A DNA stretch of 64,000 nucleotides, taken from contig CAZNZK010000001.1 in the NCBI GenBank assembly GCA_964577595.1, forward strand, positions 140,430 through 204,429, written 5' to 3'. Shown here in pieces: positions 8,690-52,381 of this stretch (the first letter of the stretch is position 1; the number at the start of each line of letters is the position of its first letter). The DNA is from an uncultured Candidatus Saccharibacteria bacterium. GTDB lineage: Bacteria > Patescibacteriota > Minisyncoccia > Phycocordibacterales > JAKAEA01. A program made the translations under genes and the position numbers. The notes beneath the pieces are model-generated. The model had not been told where the DNA came from and made no database searches. It saw only the letters and a program-made list of their open reading frames with translations.

Positions 8690-8767
8690 TGGTGACCCCT
8701 ACGGGATTCGAACCCGTGTTCCAAGCTTGAGAAGCTCGTGTCCTGGACCAGGCTAGACGAAAGGGCC
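8690..8767 (-). tRNA. tRNA-Glu (anticodon CTC), CCA encoded
   Basis: Cloverleaf read by hand: acceptor GGCCCTT/AGGGGTC, D arm, anticodon stem CGAGC/GCTTG with loop TTCTCAA, T arm ACGGG-TTCGAAT-CCCGT, discriminator A, CCA. Confidence 0.75.
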
Positions 8768-15404: not shown

Positions 15405-15642
15405 ATATCACCTCACATTTTGTGAAAGATCCGTTTTTTAGGTTGAGACACTCTCAAACCTTGCTTATTAAATAATAAATCAAAAACACAGAAAAGTCAA
15501 GTATGGGGAATGTTAAAACAACCCGCTTTTGGGCGAGTTGTTTTGGGGTTATTTCAAGTTTTTTATCGACTTAACAAATTACAAGATTTTATTCTTATCC
15601 GAATGATTGTAAGTAATTTTTTTTGCAGTAGAATACGGACAC

Positions 15643-16224
15643 ATGGCATCCTTGCGTGAACAAAAAAGATTAATCAAAGGTATTCATGATAGCGATGATT
15701 TAGTGCTTTATGATACTCCCAACGAAACGAATATAGTGGAGTATTTTTTGAAACACCCCCTCTTTAATGAGGACAGTAAAATAAATTTTTCTAAACCGTA
15801 TTGGGAGGAAAACAAGAATTTTTGGCAACCTAGAGAAGAGCGTGTGCATAAAATTAAAGCACTCATTCGTTCTTGTATACACGATAAGTTTATCGAACCA
15901 ATAAAAGAGGAGGTGGAAAGACAGGAGCAGGTGCTTTCTGTCGATTATTATAAAATTATGTCTGGAACAAAAGAACCACCAAAGACATTTAAATACATTA
16001 TCGATCGTGGATATCAGGCCACAAGCCGAGGAACTGACTTGCTGACTGTCTGGGGTTTCGTTTCGATCACTTTAGAGAAGTACAGCCCCATTAGTCTATT
16101 TTTAACCGGTACTGGCATAGCGGCTGTTATTTTAGGGGCGATTTATTGGATTTTTACCCAACTACCTACGTGGCTGTGCTATGTTTCGTATATCCCTTTC
16201 GTATTTAAATGGTGCCATGCTTAA
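15643..16224 (+). CDS. AT-rich orphan protein with C-terminal TM helices
   Basis: 193 aa, about 35% GC versus about 48% background; own bidirectional terminator downstream. Confidence 0.4.
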   Translation: MASLREQKRLIKGIHDSDDLVLYDTPNETNIVEYFLKHPLFNEDSKINFSKPYWEENKNFWQPREERVHKIKALIRSCIHDKFIEPIKEEVERQEQVLSVDYYKIMSGTKEPPKTFKYIIDRGYQATSRGTDLLTVWGFVSITLEKYSPISLFLTGTGIAAVILGAIYWIFTQLPTWLCYVSYIPFVFKWCHA

Positions 16225-37966: not shown

Positions 37967-39013
37967 TTATACCAAAGAGTAGCGCCCTTCTTTATCTTTC
38001 TTAAAGTTTTTCGGGTTCTGAAGATTTACCATGATGGTGTTTTCCTTGACGTAGCGCTCTTTCAAAACCTTGCCGATAACCTCTTCGCGGGTCATGGGGC
38101 CATTCTGCTCAATAACTTTACGGATAACATCTTTAACCACGCCGGAAATGTAGCCCCATTCGGAAAGGGCGTAGAGGCCGCGGCCGACGAGCACAAAGCG
38201 CGGGTCTTTGATGAGCTCGTTGTGGGTGGTGGCAACGTGAGCTTTTTTCTTAAAGAGTTTTTCAATTTGTTTGGCTACCTCCGTGAAGTGAATGGGTGAA
38301 CCGTGTTTGCGGATAACCAAAAAGGCGTAGTCGCGCATGCCTTTGGCATGGACATTCGGGCTAGAAGCGCGGCCCCACTCCCCCAGCGGGTTTTTGGAGA
38401 CAGCTTTGGAAAGCGAAAGCCAGCGTTTGAGAATTTCGTCTTTTTTGTATTCCTCAGAAACCTCCTTCAGGTGCGTCAAAAATGACTGAAGAATGTCTTG
38501 TTCGGAAACCAGGTCGTCGTCGGAAATGCTCTCGTAAAGCTTATGAAGAGCCGTGTGGACCTTGCCAGAAAGCTGGTCGTCAATGTGCCAACGATGATGA
38601 AAATGCTCGTCTTCTTTTTCGCGCTTAAAGGCCTCACCAATAATAAGCAGGAAGTTGAGATGATTGTGGACGCTGGCTTCGCGGGAAAGTTCGTTCAGGA
38701 GGTCGGCTTCGGAAATGACGCCGCCGAGCTTTTGGATTACACCCTCCAATTCGTCAAAAACCTTCTTCTCTTTCTCATATTCCTTGGATTTGCGAATGGC
38801 CGTAAGGGCGTGATTTTCTATTTGGCGCACGCGTTCGCGGGTGATCTTATACTTCTTGCCGATAGCGTCCAGCGTAAGGCGCTCGGTGCTTTTGCCGAGG
38901 CCATAGCGGTTCATCATGACGTCGCGGGCCCGCTCCGGTAAAACGGAAAGAAGCTTGGCTGTCACGAGCTTCGGTTTGAAGTTGATGAGAGAAGAAGTGT
39001 TGTTATTGGCCAT
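37967..39013 (-). CDS. Sigma-70 region-4-like HTH + C-terminal HARE-HTH domain protein
   Basis: N-terminal …LSVLPERARDVMMNRYGL…TLDAIGKKYKITRERVRQIENHAL… (sigma r4); C-terminal …AFLVIRKHGSPIHFTEVAKQI…RFVLVGRGLYAL… (HARE-HTH). The upstream extension to 39058 uses a TTG start. Confidence 0.55.
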   Translation of the reverse strand: MANNNTSSLINFKPKLVTAKLLSVLPERARDVMMNRYGLGKSTERLTLDAIGKKYKITRERVRQIENHALTAIRKSKEYEKEKKVFDELEGVIQKLGGVISEADLLNELSREASVHNHLNFLLIIGEAFKREKEDEHFHHRWHIDDQLSGKVHTALHKLYESISDDDLVSEQDILQSFLTHLKEVSEEYKKDEILKRWLSLSKAVSKNPLGEWGRASSPNVHAKGMRDYAFLVIRKHGSPIHFTEVAKQIEKLFKKKAHVATTHNELIKDPRFVLVGRGLYALSEWGYISGVVKDVIRKVIEQNGPMTREEVIGKVLKERYVKENTIMVNLQNPKNFKKDKEGRYSLV

Positions 39014-39170
39014 AAGATACGGGGTTAATTGATAATAATTTTTAAAATAGTGCGCCAAAGCAGTACTAAAAGTTGACTAAAATGAATTAGTACGGTGCGT
39101 GTGATACTTAATATGTATCATTTTCTACCCTATACGTCAAGTCTGTCAAGTCTCGCCCGAAATTGACAAT

Positions 39171-39317: not shown

Positions 39318-42179
39318 TTAGACAACGATATTCACCAACCTCCCTGGCACGTAAATCACTTTTTTCGGCTCCTTTCCTTCCAGCCATTTTTTGACGCTTT
39401 CAGTGGCGAGGGCTTGGGTTTTTGCTGAGTCTTCAGTGAGGCCGGGGGCGCTTTGAAATTCACCACGGACTTTGCCATTAACTTGAATGATGATAGTTAC
39501 CGGCTGTTCTTTGATTTTTGACTCGTCGGCCTGGGGCCACGGCACGATATGGATGGATTTTTTATGGCCAAGTTGGCTCCAAAGTTCCTCGGCAATATGC
39601 GGCGCAAACGGCGCTAAAATTTGTAAAAATGGCTCAAAAATGGCAGCGGGAATTTCGGCCTGCTTTTCCATTTCATTGCTCAATATCATCATAGCGGAAA
39701 TAGCAGTGTTGAATTGCATCGCTTCAATGTCGGTGGCAACTTTCTTGATGGTTTTTTGCGTCAACGTGTCCAATTCCCTATTCTTGCTTTTTTTGACGAC
39801 TTTCTCCGAAAGGCGCCAGACCTTTTCCAGAAAGCGCCGCGGGCCGACGATGCCGTCGGTGCTCCAACTTACCGCTTGAGCGAAAGGCCCCATGAACATT
39901 TCGTAGAGGCGCAAGGTGTCGGCGCCAAATTCGTTGACGATAGAATCGGGGTTGATAACGTTGCCTCGTGACTTGGACATTTTTTCGCCATCTGGAGCTA
40001 AAATAAGGCCGTGGGCGGTGCGCTTGGCATACGCCTCACTCGTTGGTACGGCGCCAATGTCAAAAAGAAACTTATTCCAAAAACGCGAATATAAGAGATG
40101 TAGTGTGGTGTGCTCCATACCACCGTTATACCAATCTACTGGTTGCCAGTATTTCAATTTTGCCGGCGCGGCCAAGGCTTTGCTATTTTTCGGGTCAATA
40201 TAGCGCAGGAAATACCAGCTTGAGCCAGCCCAATTAGGCATGGTGTCGGTTTCGCGCGTGGCCTCGCCGCCGCATTTCGGACATTTCACCGTGCGCCACT
40301 TTTTCATGGCCGGGTCATCGCCCGCCAACGGCGATTCACCCGTGTCTGTAGGCTCGTATTTTGCCACGGGCGGCAATTTTACGGGCAGGTCCTTCTCTGC
40401 CACAGCCTGCCAGCCGCATTCTTTGCAGAACACAAGCGGAATAGGCTCGCCCCAGTAGCGCTGGCGGCTGAAAACCCAATCGCGGAGCTTAAACGTGGTA
40501 ACCATTTTACCACCCACCGACTCCGTGATGGCTTTTTTCGCCTTTTCCGAATCCATGCCATTGAATTTTCCGGAATTCACTAAAATTCCCTCGCCGGTAT
40601 ACGTTGGTAATTTGTTTCTAAAAAGCGCTAAAGCATGAGTATGCGTTGCCGGGGTAAGCCACGTCTTTAATTCGTCTAAAGTGAGCCATTGTATGTCGTG
40701 AATAGATGCTTCGCTTTCCGAAACGGGCTCCCGAGCATCATTTTGGAGTTCAAAATAAACGATATGGCCATGTACCAGGCGATTTTCTTTTTTTGGTACA
40801 TGATAAAAAAGACCGTGAGTGATACCGATTTCTTTTATGAATTTTGGATGTAAGAAACCAGTTTCTTCGCGTATTTCAGTAAGGCCAGCATGTTCCGCTG
40901 TTTGACCAGGCTCAATGCCGCCTGTTAGAAATGTTTTCCAGGCGACTTTTTTCCATTTCAAACCGATATATTTGTCTTCGGACCAGTGTTTGATAATAGT
41001 AATAATTCCATTGCGCGGCACGATAGGCTCATCTTTTCGATACACGCCAGGCTCAGTTGTTTGTACGTAAAAAGATTCCAACACTTCCCTGAGGGGTAAG
41101 TTATATTTCTTGGCGAATTCCCCATCGCGCTCATCGTGGGCGGGCACGGCCATCACGGCACCGGTGCCGTATTCGGCCAGAACGTAGTCGGCAACAAAAA
41201 TAGGCACGTCCTCGGCATTGGCCGGGTTAATGGCGCGAATACCTTTGAGCTCAACACCAGTCTTTTCCTTTTTCGCGTCGGTACGATCCATTTCAGATTT
41301 CTTTTTTGCGCTGGCGATGTAGGCCTCTACTTCTGATTTATTTGAAATTTCCAGCAAGAGCTTAGGAATAAGTGGATGCTCAGGCGCGACAACGACATAC
41401 GTGACACCAAAAAGCGTGTCGGCGCGGGTCGTAAAAATCTTGATTTTCTCTCGGAAAGAATTAGGGGCGTTACGCACGGCAAACTCTAGCTCTGAACCCT
41501 CACTCCGGCCTATCCAGTTGCGCTGTTGGGTTTTGATTTCCGGCAAGTAATCAACGGTGTCTAGGTCTTTGTCCAGGCGGTCGGCGTATTTGGTGATGGC
41601 GAGCATCCACTGCTCTTTTTCGCGCTTCTCCACTGGCGTGCCGCAACGTTCGCAACAGCCGTTGACCACTTCTTCATTGGCCAAGCCGATTTTGTCTTTG
41701 GGGCACCAGTTAATGAGTGTTTTTTTCTTGTACGCAAGATTCTTTTTCCAGAGCTGGAGAAAAATCCACTGGGTCCAGCGGTAATAGGCCGGGTCGGTGG
41801 TGTTGACTTCGCGCGTCCAGTCAAAAGAAAAACCGAGTGCTTTGAGCTGGCGACGGAAGGTGTCGGTATTTTTTTCGGTTACTAATTGCGGGGCGATGCC
41901 GGTTTTGAGGGCGTAATTTTCCGTGGGCAAGCCGAATGCGTCCCAGCCTATTGGGTAAAGAACATTATAACCTTCCATGCGGCGTTTGCGGGCGACAATA
42001 TCCATGGCGGTATTGGAGCGAATGTGGCCAACGTGCAAGCCGTCGCCGGAAGGATAGGGAAATTCTATGAGGCCGTAAAACTTTGGTTTCTTGCTTGTAT
42101 CAGACGCTTCATATATACCGCTTTTTTGCCAAGCAGCCTGCCACTTCTTCTCACTCTTTTTCGGATCGTATGGTTTCAC
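39318..42179 (-). CDS. leuS: Leucine--tRNA ligase with a NUDIX-like domain inserted in the CP1/editing region
   Basis: 953 aa; HIGH (PYPSGDGLHVGH), KMSKS, CP1 motifs (…GTGAVMAVPAHDERD…); residues about 365-525 contain GGIEPGQTAEHAGLTEIREETGF (NUDIX-box-like) with no counterpart in canonical LeuRS. Confidence 0.85.
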   Translation of the reverse strand: MKPYDPKKSEKKWQAAWQKSGIYEASDTSKKPKFYGLIEFPYPSGDGLHVGHIRSNTAMDIVARKRRMEGYNVLYPIGWDAFGLPTENYALKTGIAPQLVTEKNTDTFRRQLKALGFSFDWTREVNTTDPAYYRWTQWIFLQLWKKNLAYKKKTLINWCPKDKIGLANEEVVNGCCERCGTPVEKREKEQWMLAITKYADRLDKDLDTVDYLPEIKTQQRNWIGRSEGSELEFAVRNAPNSFREKIKIFTTRADTLFGVTYVVVAPEHPLIPKLLLEISNKSEVEAYIASAKKKSEMDRTDAKKEKTGVELKGIRAINPANAEDVPIFVADYVLAEYGTGAVMAVPAHDERDGEFAKKYNLPLREVLESFYVQTTEPGVYRKDEPIVPRNGIITIIKHWSEDKYIGLKWKKVAWKTFLTGGIEPGQTAEHAGLTEIREETGFLHPKFIKEIGITHGLFYHVPKKENRLVHGHIVYFELQNDAREPVSESEASIHDIQWLTLDELKTWLTPATHTHALALFRNKLPTYTGEGILVNSGKFNGMDSEKAKKAITESVGGKMVTTFKLRDWVFSRQRYWGEPIPLVFCKECGWQAVAEKDLPVKLPPVAKYEPTDTGESPLAGDDPAMKKWRTVKCPKCGGEATRETDTMPNWAGSSWYFLRYIDPKNSKALAAPAKLKYWQPVDWYNGGMEHTTLHLLYSRFWNKFLFDIGAVPTSEAYAKRTAHGLILAPDGEKMSKSRGNVINPDSIVNEFGADTLRLYEMFMGPFAQAVSWSTDGIVGPRRFLEKVWRLSEKVVKKSKNRELDTLTQKTIKKVATDIEAMQFNTAISAMMILSNEMEKQAEIPAAIFEPFLQILAPFAPHIAEELWSQLGHKKSIHIVPWPQADESKIKEQPVTIIIQVNGKVRGEFQSAPGLTEDSAKTQALATESVKKWLEGKEPKKVIYVPGRLVNIVV

Positions 42180-42781: not shown

Positions 42782-43303
42782 TTATTGTGGCCAAATTTGA
42801 AGCGGGTCGCTTATGATAATCTCCGCCTGACCATTATAGAGCCGGACTATGCCGCTTACAATGATAGATTTACCCTGATATTTAGTGAGATTGGGGAGCT
42901 TGCTTACGTCTTCTTTGAAAACAATTGCCGTAAAGGGGCAGGTTTTGCTCGTAGCGCAAAAATCAAGGAAGGTGGTGTTGGTTGACGACGTAAACACTTT
43001 AACAACGGTGCCACTGATGCCGGTGCTTTCGCCAATATGGTTTTTTGCCTCAGTATACGGATAGGCCTTGCCGTTGAGTTTGGGGCCGGCGTAGTTGGCA
43101 GGAACAGCCTGCATCGGATTATTTTTAGGAGGTGTGGTTGGGATGATTAATTCTGGGGTGGGCTGAATAAAAATACTGGCCGCATACCAGCCACCAAAAA
43201 CCACGGCGAGGATGCCCAGCAGGACAAGCCAACCCCAACGCTTCCAGAATGAGCGCGGCTCCGGTGTTCCGTTCCCAAAATTACTAAGAATGGGATTATT
43301 CAT
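42782..43303 (-). CDS. Membrane-anchored protein with C-terminal OB-fold-like (BOF/YgiW-like) domain
   Basis: 173 aa; TM at 24-45; C-terminal …GTVVKVFTSSTNTTFLDF…SIIVSGIVRLYNGQAEIIISDP… resembles bacterial OB-fold domains. Confidence 0.35.
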   Translation of the reverse strand: MNNPILSNFGNGTPEPRSFWKRWGWLVLLGILAVVFGGWYAASIFIQPTPELIIPTTPPKNNPMQAVPANYAGPKLNGKAYPYTEAKNHIGESTGISGTVVKVFTSSTNTTFLDFCATSKTCPFTAIVFKEDVSKLPNLTKYQGKSIIVSGIVRLYNGQAEIIISDPLQIWPQ

Positions 43304-43829
43304 TGGTAATGAGGATTTTTTTGATAATAGCTAAATATTGCTGGCGGAGATACCCATTATTTCCTATCTCCAGAACTTCATCATTGACCAGAGTGGCGCT
43401 TGTTGTCCAATTATAACTTCCGGAGGCGTACTCCCGGTCAGTGACTATTGCTTTAACGTGCATTATACCATCTGGATGCTTTTCCGTTTCAATGGTTATC
43501 CCCGCGGCTCGCAACCGTGCCAGAATCGGCAGTTCTAGAGGTAAGGCTGATTGACCCTCGTCGGTAATCCCCCACACTGTCACACCACGCCTTTCTGCCG
43601 CAATAAGCGCGTCAGCAATAGTGGCTCTGGTGAAGGTGTACACAGCAAAATACACATAACTATGGGCATTGTTAATAACGGAAATAATTGCCTGATCATT
43701 GTTTTTTGTGTCTAAACTGTAAAGTACGCGAAATTGATCATGGGCGTGCCAAGCCATAAGTACGATGGTCAAAATGACTGCCGCAAGCAAAACAACTATT
43801 TCCATACGAGTGCGTTCGTTGAACCACAT
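43296..43829 (-). CDS. Phospholipase D-family (HKD) nuclease-like protein, membrane anchored
   Basis: 177 aa; single HKD motif MHVKAIVTDREYASGSYNWTTSA (HxK-x4-D-x6-GSxN). Confidence 0.65.
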   Translation of the reverse strand: MWFNERTRMEIVVLLAAVILTIVLMAWHAHDQFRVLYSLDTKNNDQAIISVINNAHSYVYFAVYTFTRATIADALIAAERRGVTVWGITDEGQSALPLELPILARLRAAGITIETEKHPDGIMHVKAIVTDREYASGSYNWTTSATLVNDEVLEIGNNGYLRQQYLAIIKKILITNE

Positions 43830-43916: not shown

Positions 43917-44486
43917 ATGACGCAACCCTTCGCCTCGCGGACGCACACTGAAATGCGTGATGTTTTAATGAATCCAGATGCGGCTGGGCCGGCAATCCAT
44001 TATTATATGATCCGCGGCGGTTCGGAAAAAACCAATATTACCGTGTGGGAACCGGGCACCGTTGGCGGCGAATATATAAAGACCTATGGCCACTATCATC
44101 GCGATGCCCTACCGGAAACATATACCGTGCTTTCCGGTGAAGGATTCGTTATTATTCAAGAACGAGCACACGATGCGAGTGGTGCACCAATTGATGACAA
44201 TATAAAAAATGTCCGAGCGGTGCGGGTCAAGGCAGGTGACAGTGTTGTAATTCCGCCTCGTTCAGGCCATCTGGCCATTAATACTGGCGCTACTTGGCTG
44301 GTGACTTCCGATAATAGTCCTGTTAATTTTAGTGAAGAAAAAGCCGTGAGTAAGCCCGGTCATGCCGATTACGAACCGTTCAGACGTCTTCGTGGTGCAT
44401 GTTATTACGTCATTGAAAAGAATGGGCAGCCGGAATTTGTTAAAAATCCTCATTACAAAATAGTGCCGCCTATTGTGGTTCAATAG
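43917..44486 (+). CDS. pgiA: Cupin-type glucose-6-phosphate isomerase (archaeal cPGI family)
   Basis: 189 aa; TYGHYH metal-binding cupin motif, …VVIPPRSGHLAINTG…, HADYEPF, …VIEKNGQPEFVKNPHY… closely parallel Pyrococcus-type cPGI. Confidence 0.75.
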   Translation: MTQPFASRTHTEMRDVLMNPDAAGPAIHYYMIRGGSEKTNITVWEPGTVGGEYIKTYGHYHRDALPETYTVLSGEGFVIIQERAHDASGAPIDDNIKNVRAVRVKAGDSVVIPPRSGHLAINTGATWLVTSDNSPVNFSEEKAVSKPGHADYEPFRRLRGACYYVIEKNGQPEFVKNPHYKIVPPIVVQ

Positions 44487-46578: not shown

Positions 46579-47562
46579 TCATTTCAACAGTTGTGTGATA
46601 AGGGCAACCATTTGATCTTTTTCTTGTGGTTTGCTTTCGGCAATCAAAAGCGCCAGCGCCGTTAGGGTGTTGTCGTTTATTTTCTTTTCACCGTTTGCCC
46701 GGAAAAGATATGCGTTCTTCTGTAAGAATAAAATAAAAAGCAGAGCACCGGTGCGTTTGTTGCCGTCAACGAGTGGATGGTCTTTAATAACGAAGTACAG
46801 CAAATGTGCCGCCTTTTCTTCAAGGCTGGCGTAAAGCTCCTTGCCGCCAAATGTTTGGCCGAGCGTTTGTAATATGCCACGAAGCCCTTCTCCGCGTTCT
46901 TGCCCAAAAACATCGGCCGCTGTGCCAGTTTTAATTAACGTGGTTTTCAGCTCGGCAATAGCTTTTTCAACCTCCTCAAAACCAAGCAACACTGACTTCT
47001 TCTTGCTTTTTCGGACAGTAATTTCACCCTGATCGTATTTGTGAAGTAGCAACCAGGAATCGGCATATTCTTTAATAACCGTAAGCAAGCCGCTGGCTTC
47101 GTCGGAACTTAGGCGTTTATTGCGGACATTGGTGATAAAACCAATCATTTTGTTCAATTCGCCCAATTTTGCATCACTTTTTTCCAGTCGTTTCTTGTTG
47201 AGCGTATAGCCTTTCAACAGGTGCTCGTGGAGCACGCTCGTAGCCCAGATACGAAATTGGGTGGCTTTTTGTGAATTAACACGATAACCGACGGCTAAAA
47301 TTACGTTTAAATTATAGATATTGGTTGGCTTATCGGAAGAAGTAAAGTGCATTTTTTGCACATTGCTTTTTTCTTGCAATTCATCGTCTTCAAAGATATT
47401 CGAAATGTGCTTAGTGATAACACTTCTATCCACTTGAAACACTTCCGCAATTTGCGCCTGCGTCGCCCAAATTGTGTCATGTTTAATATCCGTTCGGAGT
47501 TCAATTTTTCCGCCGGGGCCTTTAAAAATTACTAATTCTTGTTTCTTAAGAGCTTCATTCAT
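46579..47562 (-). CDS. RhuM-like N-terminal domain fused to Fic/Doc (HPLVDGNKRTG) domain
   Basis: 327 aa; N-terminal …IWATQAQIAEVFQVDRSVITKHISNIF…AVGYRVNSQKATQFRIWAT… (RhuM family); C-terminal Fic motif HPLVDGNKRTGALLF. Confidence 0.7.
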   Translation of the reverse strand: MNEALKKQELVIFKGPGGKIELRTDIKHDTIWATQAQIAEVFQVDRSVITKHISNIFEDDELQEKSNVQKMHFTSSDKPTNIYNLNVILAVGYRVNSQKATQFRIWATSVLHEHLLKGYTLNKKRLEKSDAKLGELNKMIGFITNVRNKRLSSDEASGLLTVIKEYADSWLLLHKYDQGEITVRKSKKKSVLLGFEEVEKAIAELKTTLIKTGTAADVFGQERGEGLRGILQTLGQTFGGKELYASLEEKAAHLLYFVIKDHPLVDGNKRTGALLFILFLQKNAYLFRANGEKKINDNTLTALALLIAESKPQEKDQMVALITQLLK

Positions 47563-49776: not shown

Positions 49777-50901
49777 ATGAAAAAACTTTTTTATGTTTTT
49801 GTGAGTATGGGTACGGTTTTATTTCTAATTATTAGCAGTAGTGCGATTATTTGCACTGCGGTATTGGCGGCAAAAGCCAAAACGAGCATGGCAACATTTG
49901 TGGCCACGCCGCCCGTGCACGTTTTTACCTCATCAAAGAAAACGCCGGTTGGTTTATCGCCGGCGCAAATTAAAGCCGCTTATCACCTGCCCGCGAGCGG
50001 CGGTTCCGGAACTATCGCCATTATTGCCGGCTACGGAAGCGTTACGTTGGAAAAAGATTTAGGTGTTTTTTCGCAAAATTTCAAACTGGCGGCCTGCACA
50101 GTTTCTAATAGCTGTCTCACTATACATAGCATCAAAGTCCCCAAAACCCACCCAAACGGCTGGCAAATGGAAACGTCGCTAGATGCCGAGTGGGCCCACG
50201 CTATCGCCCCCAATGCCAAAATTTTGCTTGTGGAGGCGGGTGGCACAGGTACCGCGGCGCTTTTAGCTGCTATTGATTACGCGCGCGCTCAAAAAGACGT
50301 GGTGGCCATTTCCATGAGTTGGGGTGGGCCAGAATTTCCCGAAGAAACGTCGCTTGAAAAGCATTTCACCAGCCCAAATGGCGCGGCATTTTTTGCTTCT
50401 TCGGGTGATAGTGGCGCTGGTGTGAGTTGGCCAGCCGCTTCTCCCAATGTGGTGGCAGTCGGCGGCACAGGCTTGGTGATGAGCGGTACTAATGTGTTGA
50501 AGGAAATTGCCTGGACGGGCAGTGGCGGCGGCATAAGTAAATATGAAAAAGAACCCGCCTTTCAACAAAATTACAACATTCCACGCGCTGGCGGCATGCG
50601 TGCCGTGCCCGATGTGGCCTACAATGCCGACCCGTCGCTTGGTTTCGCTATCTATCGCGCCGGAACCTGGTATATGGTTGGGGGCACTTCCGCGGGCGCG
50701 CCGCAGTGGGCGGCCATAGAGGCGCTCGGCCATTCAGTTAATTTGCCCGCACTCTATGCCGACAAAAATTCCGCCAATAACGGCGCTTTTTTCCGCGATA
50801 TTGTCAGCGGCAAGAATGGTTCCTGTGCCTACTATTGCGACGCCCGCAAACGCTACGACTACGTCACTGGCCTTGGAACTCCACTGACGATTAATTTTTA
50901 A
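49777..50901 (+). CDS. Secreted S53 (sedolisin)-family serine peptidase
   Basis: Signal peptide; S53 motifs …SLDAEWAHAIAPNA… (Glu/Asp), ASSGDSGAG (oxyanion Asp), GGTSAGAP (catalytic Ser). Confidence 0.7.
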   Translation: MKKLFYVFVSMGTVLFLIISSSAIICTAVLAAKAKTSMATFVATPPVHVFTSSKKTPVGLSPAQIKAAYHLPASGGSGTIAIIAGYGSVTLEKDLGVFSQNFKLAACTVSNSCLTIHSIKVPKTHPNGWQMETSLDAEWAHAIAPNAKILLVEAGGTGTAALLAAIDYARAQKDVVAISMSWGGPEFPEETSLEKHFTSPNGAAFFASSGDSGAGVSWPAASPNVVAVGGTGLVMSGTNVLKEIAWTGSGGGISKYEKEPAFQQNYNIPRAGGMRAVPDVAYNADPSLGFAIYRAGTWYMVGGTSAGAPQWAAIEALGHSVNLPALYADKNSANNGAFFRDIVSGKNGSCAYYCDARKRYDYVTGLGTPLTINF

Positions 50902-50906
50902 AGAAT

Positions 50907-51404
50907 ATGCGACCCATACGCGAAAACGGGATTGCTAAGTTAGGGAAAACTGCGTTTTCAAATTTCTCCTTTACTCCAGAAAAGAAATTTGAGGAGTGGA
51001 TTGAAAATATTGAGAATATTAAAAAGGGATTGGTTAGCGATATAGAGTTAGACGGAAAAGAAATTGGCATAGTTATAAACATATGGGAAAACGGCAAAAA
51101 CTCTGTGATAATTAAACTAAATTACAAAAATGTTCAGAAGATTGTTTTTGACCACGGCTCTCTCCCGTCTAATGAGCTTGTCCAAACAATAAACGCTTAC
51201 GATCAGGGAATATATATTCCTGGAATGCCGCCACTAATACGAGACAAAATTAATTTAATAAAGAGTAAGCCCAATGGTGGCATATACGTTGCTGGCGCGA
51301 ACAGAATTAATGGCTATGGTCTGGTGACTTTCTTTGAACAACTTACTCCCGAGCAGGCACAACACTACCTCGTTTCAATTAAGAAACGAGGTAGTGTGTT
51401 TTAG
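50907..51404 (+). CDS. AT-rich hypothetical protein co-transcribed with the S53 peptidase
   Basis: 165 aa, about 36% GC. Confidence 0.35.
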   Translation: MRPIRENGIAKLGKTAFSNFSFTPEKKFEEWIENIENIKKGLVSDIELDGKEIGIVINIWENGKNSVIIKLNYKNVQKIVFDHGSLPSNELVQTINAYDQGIYIPGMPPLIRDKINLIKSKPNGGIYVAGANRINGYGLVTFFEQLTPEQAQHYLVSIKKRGSVF

Positions 51405-51556
51405 TCACTGGAGGGACGGCGTACCCCTCATCCATCGCCACAAAAACTGATTGTAACGGAAAGTTGTGGACGTGTGCCAGCGAGCCTTTCTGGCGTCAGT
51501 GATCGTGTCCGTAATTAGAGACAATTCTAACCGAAAAACATTTCCTGTCAATTAGT

Positions 51557-51625
51557 CGGGCTGCCGGGAATCGAACCCGGCCCTCACCCACCCCAAGGGT
51601 GTATACTGCCGATATACTACAGCCC
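51557..51625 (-). tRNA. tRNA-Pro (anticodon GGG)
   Basis: Hand fold: anticodon stem CACCC/GGGTG, loop TTGGGGT, T arm CCGGG-TTCGATT-CCCGG; no encoded CCA. Confidence 0.65.
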
Positions 51626-51672
51626 GCAGTGCGGCTAATACTAGCTTTTCTAGCCGCCAAACGCAATCAAAA

Positions 51673-52004: not shown

Positions 52005-52075
52005 TGGACCTGGGGGGAATCGGACCCCCGCCTCGTCAATGCGAATGACGCGTCGTACCACTAGACTACAGGCCC
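52005..52075 (-). tRNA. tRNA-Ala (anticodon CGC)
   Basis: Acceptor GGGCCTG/CAGGTCC with G3·U70; anticodon stem CGTCA/TGACG, loop TTCGCAT; T arm GGGGG-TCCGATT-CCCCC. Confidence 0.7.
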
Positions 52076-52308: not shown

Positions 52309-52381
52309 TGGACCCAAGCGGGATCGAACCGCTCACCTCCTCATTGCAAATGAGGCGCTCTACCAAATGAGCTATGGGCCC
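52309..52381 (-). tRNA. tRNA-Ala (anticodon TGC)
   Basis: Canonical cloverleaf GGGCCCA-TA-GCTC-ATTTGGTA-GAGC-G-CCTCA-TTTGCAA-TGAGG-…-AGCGG-TTCGATC-CCGCT-TGGGTCC-A with G3·U70. Confidence 0.8.

Follow-up and report, generated by a model that had tools for sequence, protein, structure and literature searches.

Can the proofreading domain of an aminoacyl-tRNA synthetase house a second enzyme, and what would such an enzyme do there? The question is raised by a 64,000-nucleotide stretch of DNA, hereafter the window, from an uncultured Candidatus Saccharibacteria bacterium of the Patescibacteriota (NCBI GenBank assembly GCA_964577595.1, contig CAZNZK010000001.1, positions 140,430 to 204,429), in which leuS, the gene for leucyl-tRNA synthetase (LeuRS), carries an additional segment within the region for the CP1 editing domain. 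A first interpretation made from the letters of the window, here called the sequence-only reading, had placed a Nudix-like domain in CP1 at 40605-41087 (residues 365-525), which is correct to about 20 nucleotides and is refined here to 40602-41066. The observation is real, as the insert is confirmed to be a Nudix domain within the LeuRS editing domain, and in its core the sequence-only reading proved right wherever it could be examined.

A Nudix domain nested in the editing domain of LeuRS

The gene and the nested module are the following:

39318-42179, minus strand: leuS, bacterial-type leucyl-tRNA synthetase, open reading frame of 953 amino acids with a GTG start, stop codon included
40602-41066, minus strand: nested Nudix module of the "Q-type" sub-family, residues 372-526, in a CP1 surface loop (Thermus alignment, hidden Markov model and structural model)

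The leuS product scores 964.6 bits against the TIGR00396 equivalog model, for which the cutoff is 548.4, and 717 bits against the LeuRS of Thermus thermophilus (Tth; 1h3n). In the alignment with the Thermus enzyme, query residues 1-371 correspond to Tth 1-366 and residues 527-729 to Tth 377-580, with the module forming 155 additional residues in place of a loop of about ten (Tth 367-376). The sequence-only reading had put this expansion, between the GTGAVMAVPAHDERD and GEGILVNSG blocks, at about 150 residues. The Pfam model of the LeuRS editing domain, PF13603, is split by the insert after model position 142 of 185, and the insert therefore lies within CP1.

The nature of the insert was addressed by the profile search and the structure prediction that had been proposed along with the domain, and both bear it out. 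The insert alone matches PF00293 (NUDIX) with 45.3 bits and E=1.1e-11, far below threshold, and in the full-length protein the match still reaches 40.9 bits, above the gathering score of 21.1. An AlphaFold2 model of residues 360-532, made with 41 homologous modules, has a mean predicted local distance difference test score (pLDDT) of 92.8 and a predicted template modelling score (pTM) of 0.86; it shows the expected strand-helix-strand layout and the alpha/beta/alpha sandwich of the Nudix fold, SCOP d.113, including the flanking strands that had been suspected at both ends of the box. When this model was compared with the PDB by Foldseek, 549 matches were obtained at E<=1e-3, and all 50 of the matches listed have the Nudix fold. 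In the model of the complete LeuRS (61 homologues; pLDDT 87.2, pTM 0.77), the insert and both junctions keep pLDDT values of 79-96, which suggests a domain packed against CP1 and not one held on floppy linkers.

The motifs on which the activity of the host enzyme depends are found at these positions:

42024-42035, minus strand: HIGH signature, reading HVGH, residues 49-52 (translation and alignment of 61 homologues)
41415-41432, minus strand: threonine-rich editing motif TTRADT of CP1, residues 250-255 (translation)
41124-41168, minus strand: CP1 editing-site block GTGAVMAVPAHDERD, residues 338-352, directly upstream of the insertion point (translation)
39969-39983, minus strand: KMSKS signature, residues 733-737 (translation)

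All four are present in the window enzyme and invariant in the 61 homologues, with T250, T251, R252, D254 and T255 as the invariant positions of TTRADT, and G338, T339, G340, M343, A344, V345, P346, H348, D349, R351 and D352 as those of GTGAVMAVPAHDERD, which pairs with Tth GTGAIMAVPAHDQRD. Both hallmarks of the post-transfer editing site, the threonine-rich motif and the aspartates of GTG...HDxRD, are retained. The Nudix module has therefore joined a functional-looking editing domain and has not taken the place of CP1.

With canonical LeuRS (T. thermophilus 1h3n/2byt; E. coli 4aq7) the window enzyme has in common the catalytic core with HIGH and KMSKS, a CP1 domain with threonine-rich and GTG...D motifs, and the anticodon-binding and C-terminal domains. 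It differs from them in the Nudix module and in the absence of the leucine-specific domain before KMSKS, as Tth 581-636 has no counterpart in the Thermus alignment. The stretch at 39960-40010 (residues 724-740) reads GLILAPDGEKMSKS, with only APDGE in place of that domain. This resembles the LeuRS of Mycoplasma mobile, for which a natural GKDG tetrapeptide is reported instead of the leucine-specific domain (PMC3643597).

Active site of the module

Three features of the module are relevant to its activity:

40854-40922, minus strand: Nudix box GGIEPGQTAEHAGLTEIREETGF, residues 420-442 (translation)
40779-40805, minus strand: Y459 and the KKENR hairpin (residues 463-467), the presumed X-loop or substrate-specificity region (conservation and AlphaFold2 model)
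40710-40712, minus strand: E490, conserved acidic residue downstream of the box (93% conserved)

To assess conservation, 297 module copies of near-full length, drawn from 279 proteins, were aligned to the hidden Markov model of the family. The metal-binding glutamates E435, E438 and E439 (box positions 16, 19 and 20), all present in the window copy, are kept in 99%, 94% and 100% of copies. Glycines G420 and G441 are each kept in 99%, and G421 similarly. Conservation extends to R389 (95%), K463 (98%), N466 (99%) and R467 (90%) and, downstream, to E490 (93%), H494 (85%) and W498 (99%). Position 459, which lies 17 residues after the end of the box at F442, is aromatic in 94% of copies (Y in 60%, F in 34%), and the loop between strands 445-460 and 465-478 is visible in the full-length model. 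By analogy with other Nudix enzymes, E490 is a candidate for an additional metal ligand or a base. Non-catalytic Nudix proteins usually lack the helix glutamates. The near-invariance of these glutamates together with that of the family-specific residues speaks for purifying selection on a functional metal site, and the module is a complete and probably active Nudix nucleotide-hydrolase domain.

The box of the window copy departs from the strict consensus GX5EX7REUXEEXGU at position 7, where it has Q426, and at position 15, where it has T434, exactly the two exchanges seen by the sequence-only reading. In the family the two positions covary: the canonical ER pair occurs in 176 copies (59%), Q combined with A, M, T, S or Q in about 82, and mixed pairs are rare. 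This Q-type, to which the window copy belongs, makes up about 29% of copies.

Distribution of the family and its insertion sites

The insertion recurs in related LeuRSs and is not an expansion of unrelated fold confined to one lineage, as a survey of relatives, also proposed at the outset, made evident. PF00293 is found in all 120 of the closest LeuRS homologues, homologue sets in which module-bearing enzymes are over-represented because they were collected by similarity to the query. The named members among these 120 are Parcubacteria/Paceibacteria (Nomura-, Kaiser-, Taylorbacteria and others), the organism names of some metagenome-assembled genomes being automatic labels. Of 1.84 billion cluster representatives searched with the profile, 884 matched at E<=1e-3, and 265 of these reached E<=1e-10. 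The best 150 of these 884 are mostly LeuRSs or LeuRS fragments, roughly one third are free-standing proteins of 150-200 residues, and no partner other than LeuRS or a tandem Nudix domain was seen among these 150. When one genome of each GTDB species was scanned, at least 216 species representatives were found to carry the module, every one of them either labelled as Patescibacteria or consistent with that assignment; in each of the 80 best loci the module lies within leuS and in frame. Among the best 150 cluster representatives there are several insertion sites: CP1 has two of them in its N-terminal part, close to query residues 215-225 and 239-244, the window site follows about residue 371, and a further one is near residues 619-641, with up to three Nudix copies per LeuRS. 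These searches show a Patescibacteria-specific Nudix family that has LeuRS as its sole partner among the matches examined.

Carriage of the module by phages was considered and found no support, as the family profile gave a single weak giant-virus match (27% identity) in IMG/VR and a marginal match to a generic MutT/NUDIX family (E=0.0016) in PHROGs. For defence systems, PADLOC returned no match for either the module or the whole LeuRS.

The Nudix module is not the only domain to be nested in LeuRSs of this clade. The sister enzyme P0109 (P and L numbers denote proteins and loci of this analysis) contains a DUF559 (MTES_1575) endonuclease-like domain at residues 264-368, P0056 a Ham1/ITPase domain at residues 250-390, and P0034 and P0103 a HAD phosphatase; a PF06821 serine hydrolase is nested in P0007 (residues 749-928) and in the LeuRS of locus L010 (residues 283-438). 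P0103 is, with 1518 residues, the longest of the 120 closest homologues. PF06821 also occurs as a free-standing gene 5 kb from leuS in L091, with nested homologues in several LeuRSs. Sister enzymes with further nested domains or multiple Nudix copies are P0007, P0034, P0056, P0103, P0109, P0231, P0273 and L010:3279-6902; the extra domains lie in CP1 and in the region beyond it, PF06821 sometimes twice. With ITPase, HAD, serine hydrolase and DUF559 domains also nested in it, LeuRS is a general host for hydrolase modules in this clade.

Free-standing members and their linkage to leuS

Seven free-standing members of the family have a usable genomic context. Three of them end just before the start of leuS, at a distance of 47 nucleotides (P0002, L001), 11 nucleotides (P0148, L091) and 3 nucleotides (P0167, L093/L094); P0141 (L005) lies 2.4 kb upstream of leuS on the same strand, and P0146, P0158 and P0161 are located away from leuS. 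The linked leuS can be read in three cases (complete in L001 and L005, a partial sequence of 746 residues in L094), and none of the three carries a nested Nudix domain. An upstream free-standing gene next to an insert-free leuS argues that the association of the family with LeuRS would be selected and not accidental, and this combination of a Rosetta-stone and an operon pattern is the strongest argument for it.

Further observations concern these loci. At L005:4482-13389 (GCA_023245955.1), the same-strand order is MetRS, an unknown gene, TatD, the family Nudix P0141, two small open reading frames, a YfbR-like HD nucleotidase, a predicted membrane protein, a MutT-like Nudix and then the insert-free leuS, so that translation genes are interleaved with nucleotide-salvage hydrolases. 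The leuS at L001:914-3763 contains, immediately ahead of the TTRxDT editing motif, an unrelated insertion of about 140 residues that matches no Pfam family; in the same leuS the AVPAHD motif is altered to GDIHD. A different Nudix gene, of the WTIPKGHIEEGET...REI.EETGL type, is found repeatedly in several Patescibacteria at about 1-1.5 kb downstream of leuS: at L001:4528-5025, where it lies between nusB and rnc, and at L016, L027, L040, L050, L055, L057, L058, L065 and L074.

Exchange of modules between LeuRS backbones

The history of the module was compared with that of its host by distance-based trees and by identities from pairwise alignments; as synonymous substitution rates (dS) were saturated, rates were compared on the non-synonymous rate (dN) alone. 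Among Q-type modules, those at the window site share about 50% identity with copies at other LeuRS sites and with the free-standing Q-type proteins, but only 37% with ER-type modules at the same site. When the modules are masked and 120 LeuRS backbones are placed on a neighbour-joining tree, the module type switches at least 28 times, compared with a mean of 42 changes and a minimum of 36 when the labels are shuffled. The three backbones closest to that of the window, P0011, P0009 and P0014, are 75% identical to it and have modules of the ER type, with 33-38% identity to the window module; P0005 has 70% identity in the backbone and 76% in the module. Across 903 Q-Q pairs, backbone and module identity have a Spearman correlation of 0.00. 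As a rule, backbones are better conserved than modules (0.67 versus 0.54); between the window and the Sungiibacteriota locus L010 the order is reversed, with 49-52% identity in the backbone and 76% in the module (up to 85% over 80 residues), and with a dN of 0.20 for the module versus 0.43-0.50 for the backbone.

Base composition separates the module from its host as well. The GC content at third codon positions (GC3) is 0.348 in the module versus 0.588 in the rest of leuS, with a trough at codons of about 360-530, and it is lower than in every one of 383 windows of 155 codons from 48 other genes of the window (mean 0.531, standard deviation 0.062, minimum 0.355). In 78 species among the 80 loci L010-L089, the module GC3 is below that of the backbone in 60, and the window module lies at the extreme of this distribution. 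Because the module averages 0.06 lower across the 78 species, the low GC3 is partly a systematic bias and not due to recent transfer only.

The discordance in identity and dN, the switches on the backbone tree and the foreign GC3 together indicate that the module in the window was replaced by a horizontally acquired Q-type cassette, the closest relatives of the backbone carrying the ER type. A plausible route of exchange would be recombination within the highly conserved LeuRS sequence on both sides of the module. Neither mobility machinery nor a target duplication nor a phage vector was found for the module, and no direct repeats resembling target-site duplications were found at its boundaries. 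An 18-nucleotide imperfect inverted repeat (83% complementary) lies at 40515-40532 and 41149-41166, about 70-100 nucleotides outside the module; it was considered as a transposon-like boundary and is judged a coincidence, because both arms are coding and one of them encodes the conserved GTGAVMA. Inteins and homing elements likewise place a foreign segment in frame in a conserved region of an essential gene, with a decoupled phylogeny and a foreign composition. The module differs from them in the absence of Hint or splicing motifs and of an endonuclease, in the selection on its own catalytic residues, and in that it would, judging by the models, stay in the mature protein as a folded domain.

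Possible functions of the nested module

The explanation favoured here, with moderate confidence, sees in the insert a complete Nudix pyrophosphohydrolase that occupies a permissive surface loop of the otherwise intact CP1 editing domain and would clear a nucleotide pyrophosphate species. The module would be a hydrolase dependent on Mg2+ or Mn2+, made in a 1:1 ratio with LeuRS and rigidly docked on CP1, while LeuRS itself would keep aminoacylating and editing. A tentative guess for the substrate is the Ap3-6N class of adenylylated (di)nucleoside polyphosphates, by-products of adenylate-forming synthetases, which would be cleaved to AMP and NTP.

The choice of ApnN compounds is based on three observations. 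Aminoacyl-tRNA synthetases produce Ap3-5N, and the known asymmetric Ap4A hydrolases are Nudix enzymes (PMC7705103). The characterised structures nearest to the module are Ap6A, Ap4A and ApnA hydrolases, DIPP/DDP1 and RppH: T. thermophilus Ndx1, Mycobacterium tuberculosis Rv2985 and the Aquifex Ap4A hydrolase rank second to fifth, but at 14-20% identity and in the company of NudI, DIPP, AvrM14 and RppH. Finally, the aromatic residue 17 positions after the box, Y459, matches the tyrosine about 16-18 residues downstream of the box that marks ApnA hydrolases (Dunn et al. 1999, cited in PMC5389931, where the X-loop concept and this tyrosine are described), a marker that is itself weak and non-exclusive.

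As free-standing Nudix enzymes of this kind, T. thermophilus Ndx1 (Ap6A, 1vc8), the Aquifex aeolicus Ap4A hydrolase (3i7u), M. tuberculosis Rv2985 / MutT1 (9cxx) and E. coli RppH/NudH were compared with the module. In contrast to these, the module family is nested in LeuRS or in an operon with it, and it has features of its own, namely an N-terminal EPG...P.VER, KHW.EDKY, W.KK..W and the K-x-x-N-R hairpin; the window copy moreover lacks E7 and R15 of the box and stays under the NCBIfam cutoffs for RppH. Assignment to a characterised Nudix subfamily by NCBIfam was tried and rejected, as the matches to RppH, NudC, MutT and NudE all fall far below their cutoffs, and matches of the module to PDB sequences are weak (E=1e-3 to 4e-7).

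Several findings weigh against the favoured explanation. The window box departs from the consensus at position 7 (E to Q) and at position 15 (R to T), and box position 19 is occupied by Q in 18% of Q-type copies, a change which the window copy does not share; some copies may therefore be weakened or inactive. Identity to any characterised Nudix enzyme is 14-20%, and the best structural match, the MutT/nudix protein 2azw of Enterococcus faecalis (14% identity), is free-standing, lacks the K-x-x-N-R hairpin and has no known function or link to LeuRS. For these last reasons, the assignment of an ApnN-type substrate, made by analogy, is weak and tentative. A role in ApnN clearance also fails to explain why the family would be tied to LeuRS and not to stronger producers of Ap4A such as LysRS.

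The most serious rival, though itself unlikely, accepts an active Nudix enzyme and removes any link to leucylation: the module would be a house-cleaning hydrolase or a semi-selfish, "addictive" passenger, which uses LeuRS as a large, essential, constitutively expressed and insertion-tolerant scaffold, with nesting in frame as a guard against deletional loss. The presence of unrelated hydrolases and of up to three Nudix copies at several loops of sister LeuRSs speaks for this, and the nested ITPase, HAD, serine-hydrolase and DUF559 domains fit a mere scaffold at least as well as they fit the favoured explanation. The decoupled phylogenies of module and backbone, the foreign composition of the module and the position of leuS in relatives among nucleotide-salvage hydrolases (TatD, YfbR-like HD, second Nudix) are likewise in its favour. 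However, free-standing members stand directly upstream of leuS in three of the seven informative cases, with no nested copy in the LeuRSs that can be read; such complementarity between nested and upstream copies is a prediction of functional coupling and therefore counts against a scaffold alone, as does the lack of any other host protein among the 150 best representatives.

A reading that joins exchange with coupling is distinctly doubtful. LeuRS of Paceibacteria-type Patescibacteria would be a landing platform for exchanged, active hydrolases, the cassettes being two Nudix sub-families, ITPase, HAD and serine hydrolase, and the Nudix domain would be the coupled one, destroying an adenylate by-product of LeuRS in cis or in trans. 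Candidate by-products would be Ap4A-type dinucleotides or released non-cognate aminoacyl-adenylate. If true, the coupled Nudix enzyme would be a third, physically integrated quality-control activity of a synthetase, either nested or provided by a gene directly upstream. 

Accessory activities that are either fused to a synthetase or encoded separately are known from the INS domain of ProRS and YbaK (PMC3973320) and from the AlaRS editing domain and AlaX, and an appended enzyme is known from IleRS with a GNAT domain (NCBIfam NF040702); the evolutionary logic is shared with the window module. Unlike the latter, these are not Nudix domains and act on aminoacyl-tRNA or on aminoacyl-adenylate analogues. 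None of those named here lies within CP1, occurs in several copies or has been swapped among divergent host genes.

That the module is non-catalytic is quite improbable. It would then be a ligand sensor (for Ap4A or ADP-ribose, compare CFIm25 and NrtR) or a docking surface for tRNA or protein that modulates LeuRS. Non-enzymatic Nudix proteins are well documented (PMC5389931, PMC7705103), and the absence of the consensus E7 and R15 from the window copy, the share of about 29% for the Q-type and the further loss of E19 in 18% of Q-type copies fit with such a role. Against it stand the conservation of E435, E438 and E439 at 94-100%, with all three in the window copy, as well as E490 and the K-x-x-N-R hairpin. 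For MutT, exchanges of the residues equivalent to E7 and R15 are reported to lower activity without abolishing it.

It is very unlikely that the module is an RNA-directed enzyme of the RppH, NudC or decapping type. Such an enzyme would act on the 5' end of an RNA, for instance of tRNA-Leu or a precursor bound to LeuRS, and strip off pyrophosphate or a nucleotide cap (ppp, NAD, Np4N). The best NCBIfam matches of the module are indeed RppH models, its PDB sequence and structure neighbours include AvrM14, oomycete decapping effectors, RppH and NUDT12, and the module, with its conserved basic residues K410, K463, R467 and R389, is tethered to a tRNA-binding enzyme. These RppH matches are weak, however, the equivalog score (PRK00714) being 26.8 bits, far under the cutoff of 259. 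Mature tRNA 5' ends are monophosphates after cleavage by RNase P, and the known LeuRS-tRNA complexes do not place the tRNA 5' end close to CP1.

Clean-up specific to LeuRS chemistry, by hydrolysis of released non-cognate aminoacyl-adenylate as an aid to pre-transfer editing or of a toxin that mimics the adenylate, is a long shot. Hydrolysis of an aminoacyl-adenylate was one of the functions that the sequence-only reading thought possible, besides hydrolysis of a (d)NDP-X species and a degenerate binding module; the conserved metal-binding glutamates speak against degeneracy. A substrate specific to LeuRS would account for the strict LeuRS specificity of the family, and the acyl-phosphate anhydride would be roughly isosteric with a diphosphate. 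Aminoacyl-adenylate is, however, the least conventional of Nudix substrates, hydrolysis of aminoacyl-AMP being known for HIT-family enzymes and not for Nudix enzymes; the sequence gives no sign of an amino-acid-binding pocket, and the nested ITPase and HAD domains of sister enzymes are off-theme. The well-characterised Nudix hydrolases all cleave a pyrophosphate linkage (PMC5389931).

An intein, a self-splicing intron with an open reading frame or an assembly chimera is effectively refuted: the reported richness of patescibacterial rRNA and tRNA genes in introns and the foreign base composition of the module would suit one, but the frame is continuous with confidently modelled and folded junctions, Pfam detects no Hint, intein or LAGLIDADG domain, an Rfam scan of the window at gathering scores returned four tRNAs only and no intron or ribozyme in leuS, all 465 nucleotides encode a well-folded domain and leave no space for a ribozyme, the module is in frame in 80 of the 80 loci examined of the 216 species representatives, and the identical protein is found on independent contigs.

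Other features of the window

Immediately downstream of leuS, at 37967-39058 on the minus strand, lies a gene for a protein of 363 residues with the unusual architecture of a sigma-70 region 4 (residues 36-90) and a HARE-HTH domain (residues 241-301), in which sigma region 2 was not detected. The minus-strand gene at 46579-47562 encodes 327 residues with a RhuM-family N-terminal region and a Fic/DOC domain. A small PLD-like (PLDc_2) protein of 177 residues at 43296-43829 (minus strand) adjoins a cupin-type glucose-6-phosphate isomerase of 189 residues at 43917-44486 (plus strand), whose GC3 of 0.40 is among the three lowest of the window. The plus-strand genes at 15613-16221 and 50895-51401 have a GC3 of 0.37 and 0.38 compared with the window mean of 0.52 and may be foreign segments. 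Three of the four tRNA genes are clustered, at 51556-51626, 52005-52075 and 52309-52381 (minus strand), and the fourth lies at 8693-8767 (minus strand); no Rfam family besides tRNA was found at gathering score in the window.

Novelty and significance

The sequence-only reading considered the architecture unfamiliar. This stands in so far as no description of a Nudix domain nested in CP1 of LeuRS was found in the literature, where coverage of subscription journals was incomplete and an earlier description is possible; occurrence at several sites and in multiple copies, the duality of nested and operonic forms and the exchange of cassettes within an essential gene were likewise not found described. 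It does not stand as a peculiarity of this genome, as the architecture is lineage-wide in Patescibacteria and already present, unremarked, in public databases. The parts, a bacterial LeuRS and a Nudix domain, are known and their sequences and Pfam domains are public, while their combination is apparently undescribed.

Aminoacyl-tRNA synthetases have been studied as thoroughly as few other enzymes, and the bacterial ones are usually deemed architecturally conservative, whereas here a second, apparently active enzyme is found radiation-wide in the proofreading domain of LeuRS. If the module is not coupled to LeuRS chemistry, it would still be a clear natural case of folded enzyme domains that serve as exchangeable cassettes inside an essential gene. 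That would be relevant to the retention of accessory functions in reduced genomes, to the tolerance for domain insertion in protein engineering, and to LeuRS as a phylogenetic marker or as a drug target, since benzoxaboroles bind CP1. If the module is coupled, it would represent a new kind of synthetase-associated clean-up and would offer a direct handle on the turnover of dinucleotide alarmones or adenylates in organisms for which growth in isolation is not yet possible.

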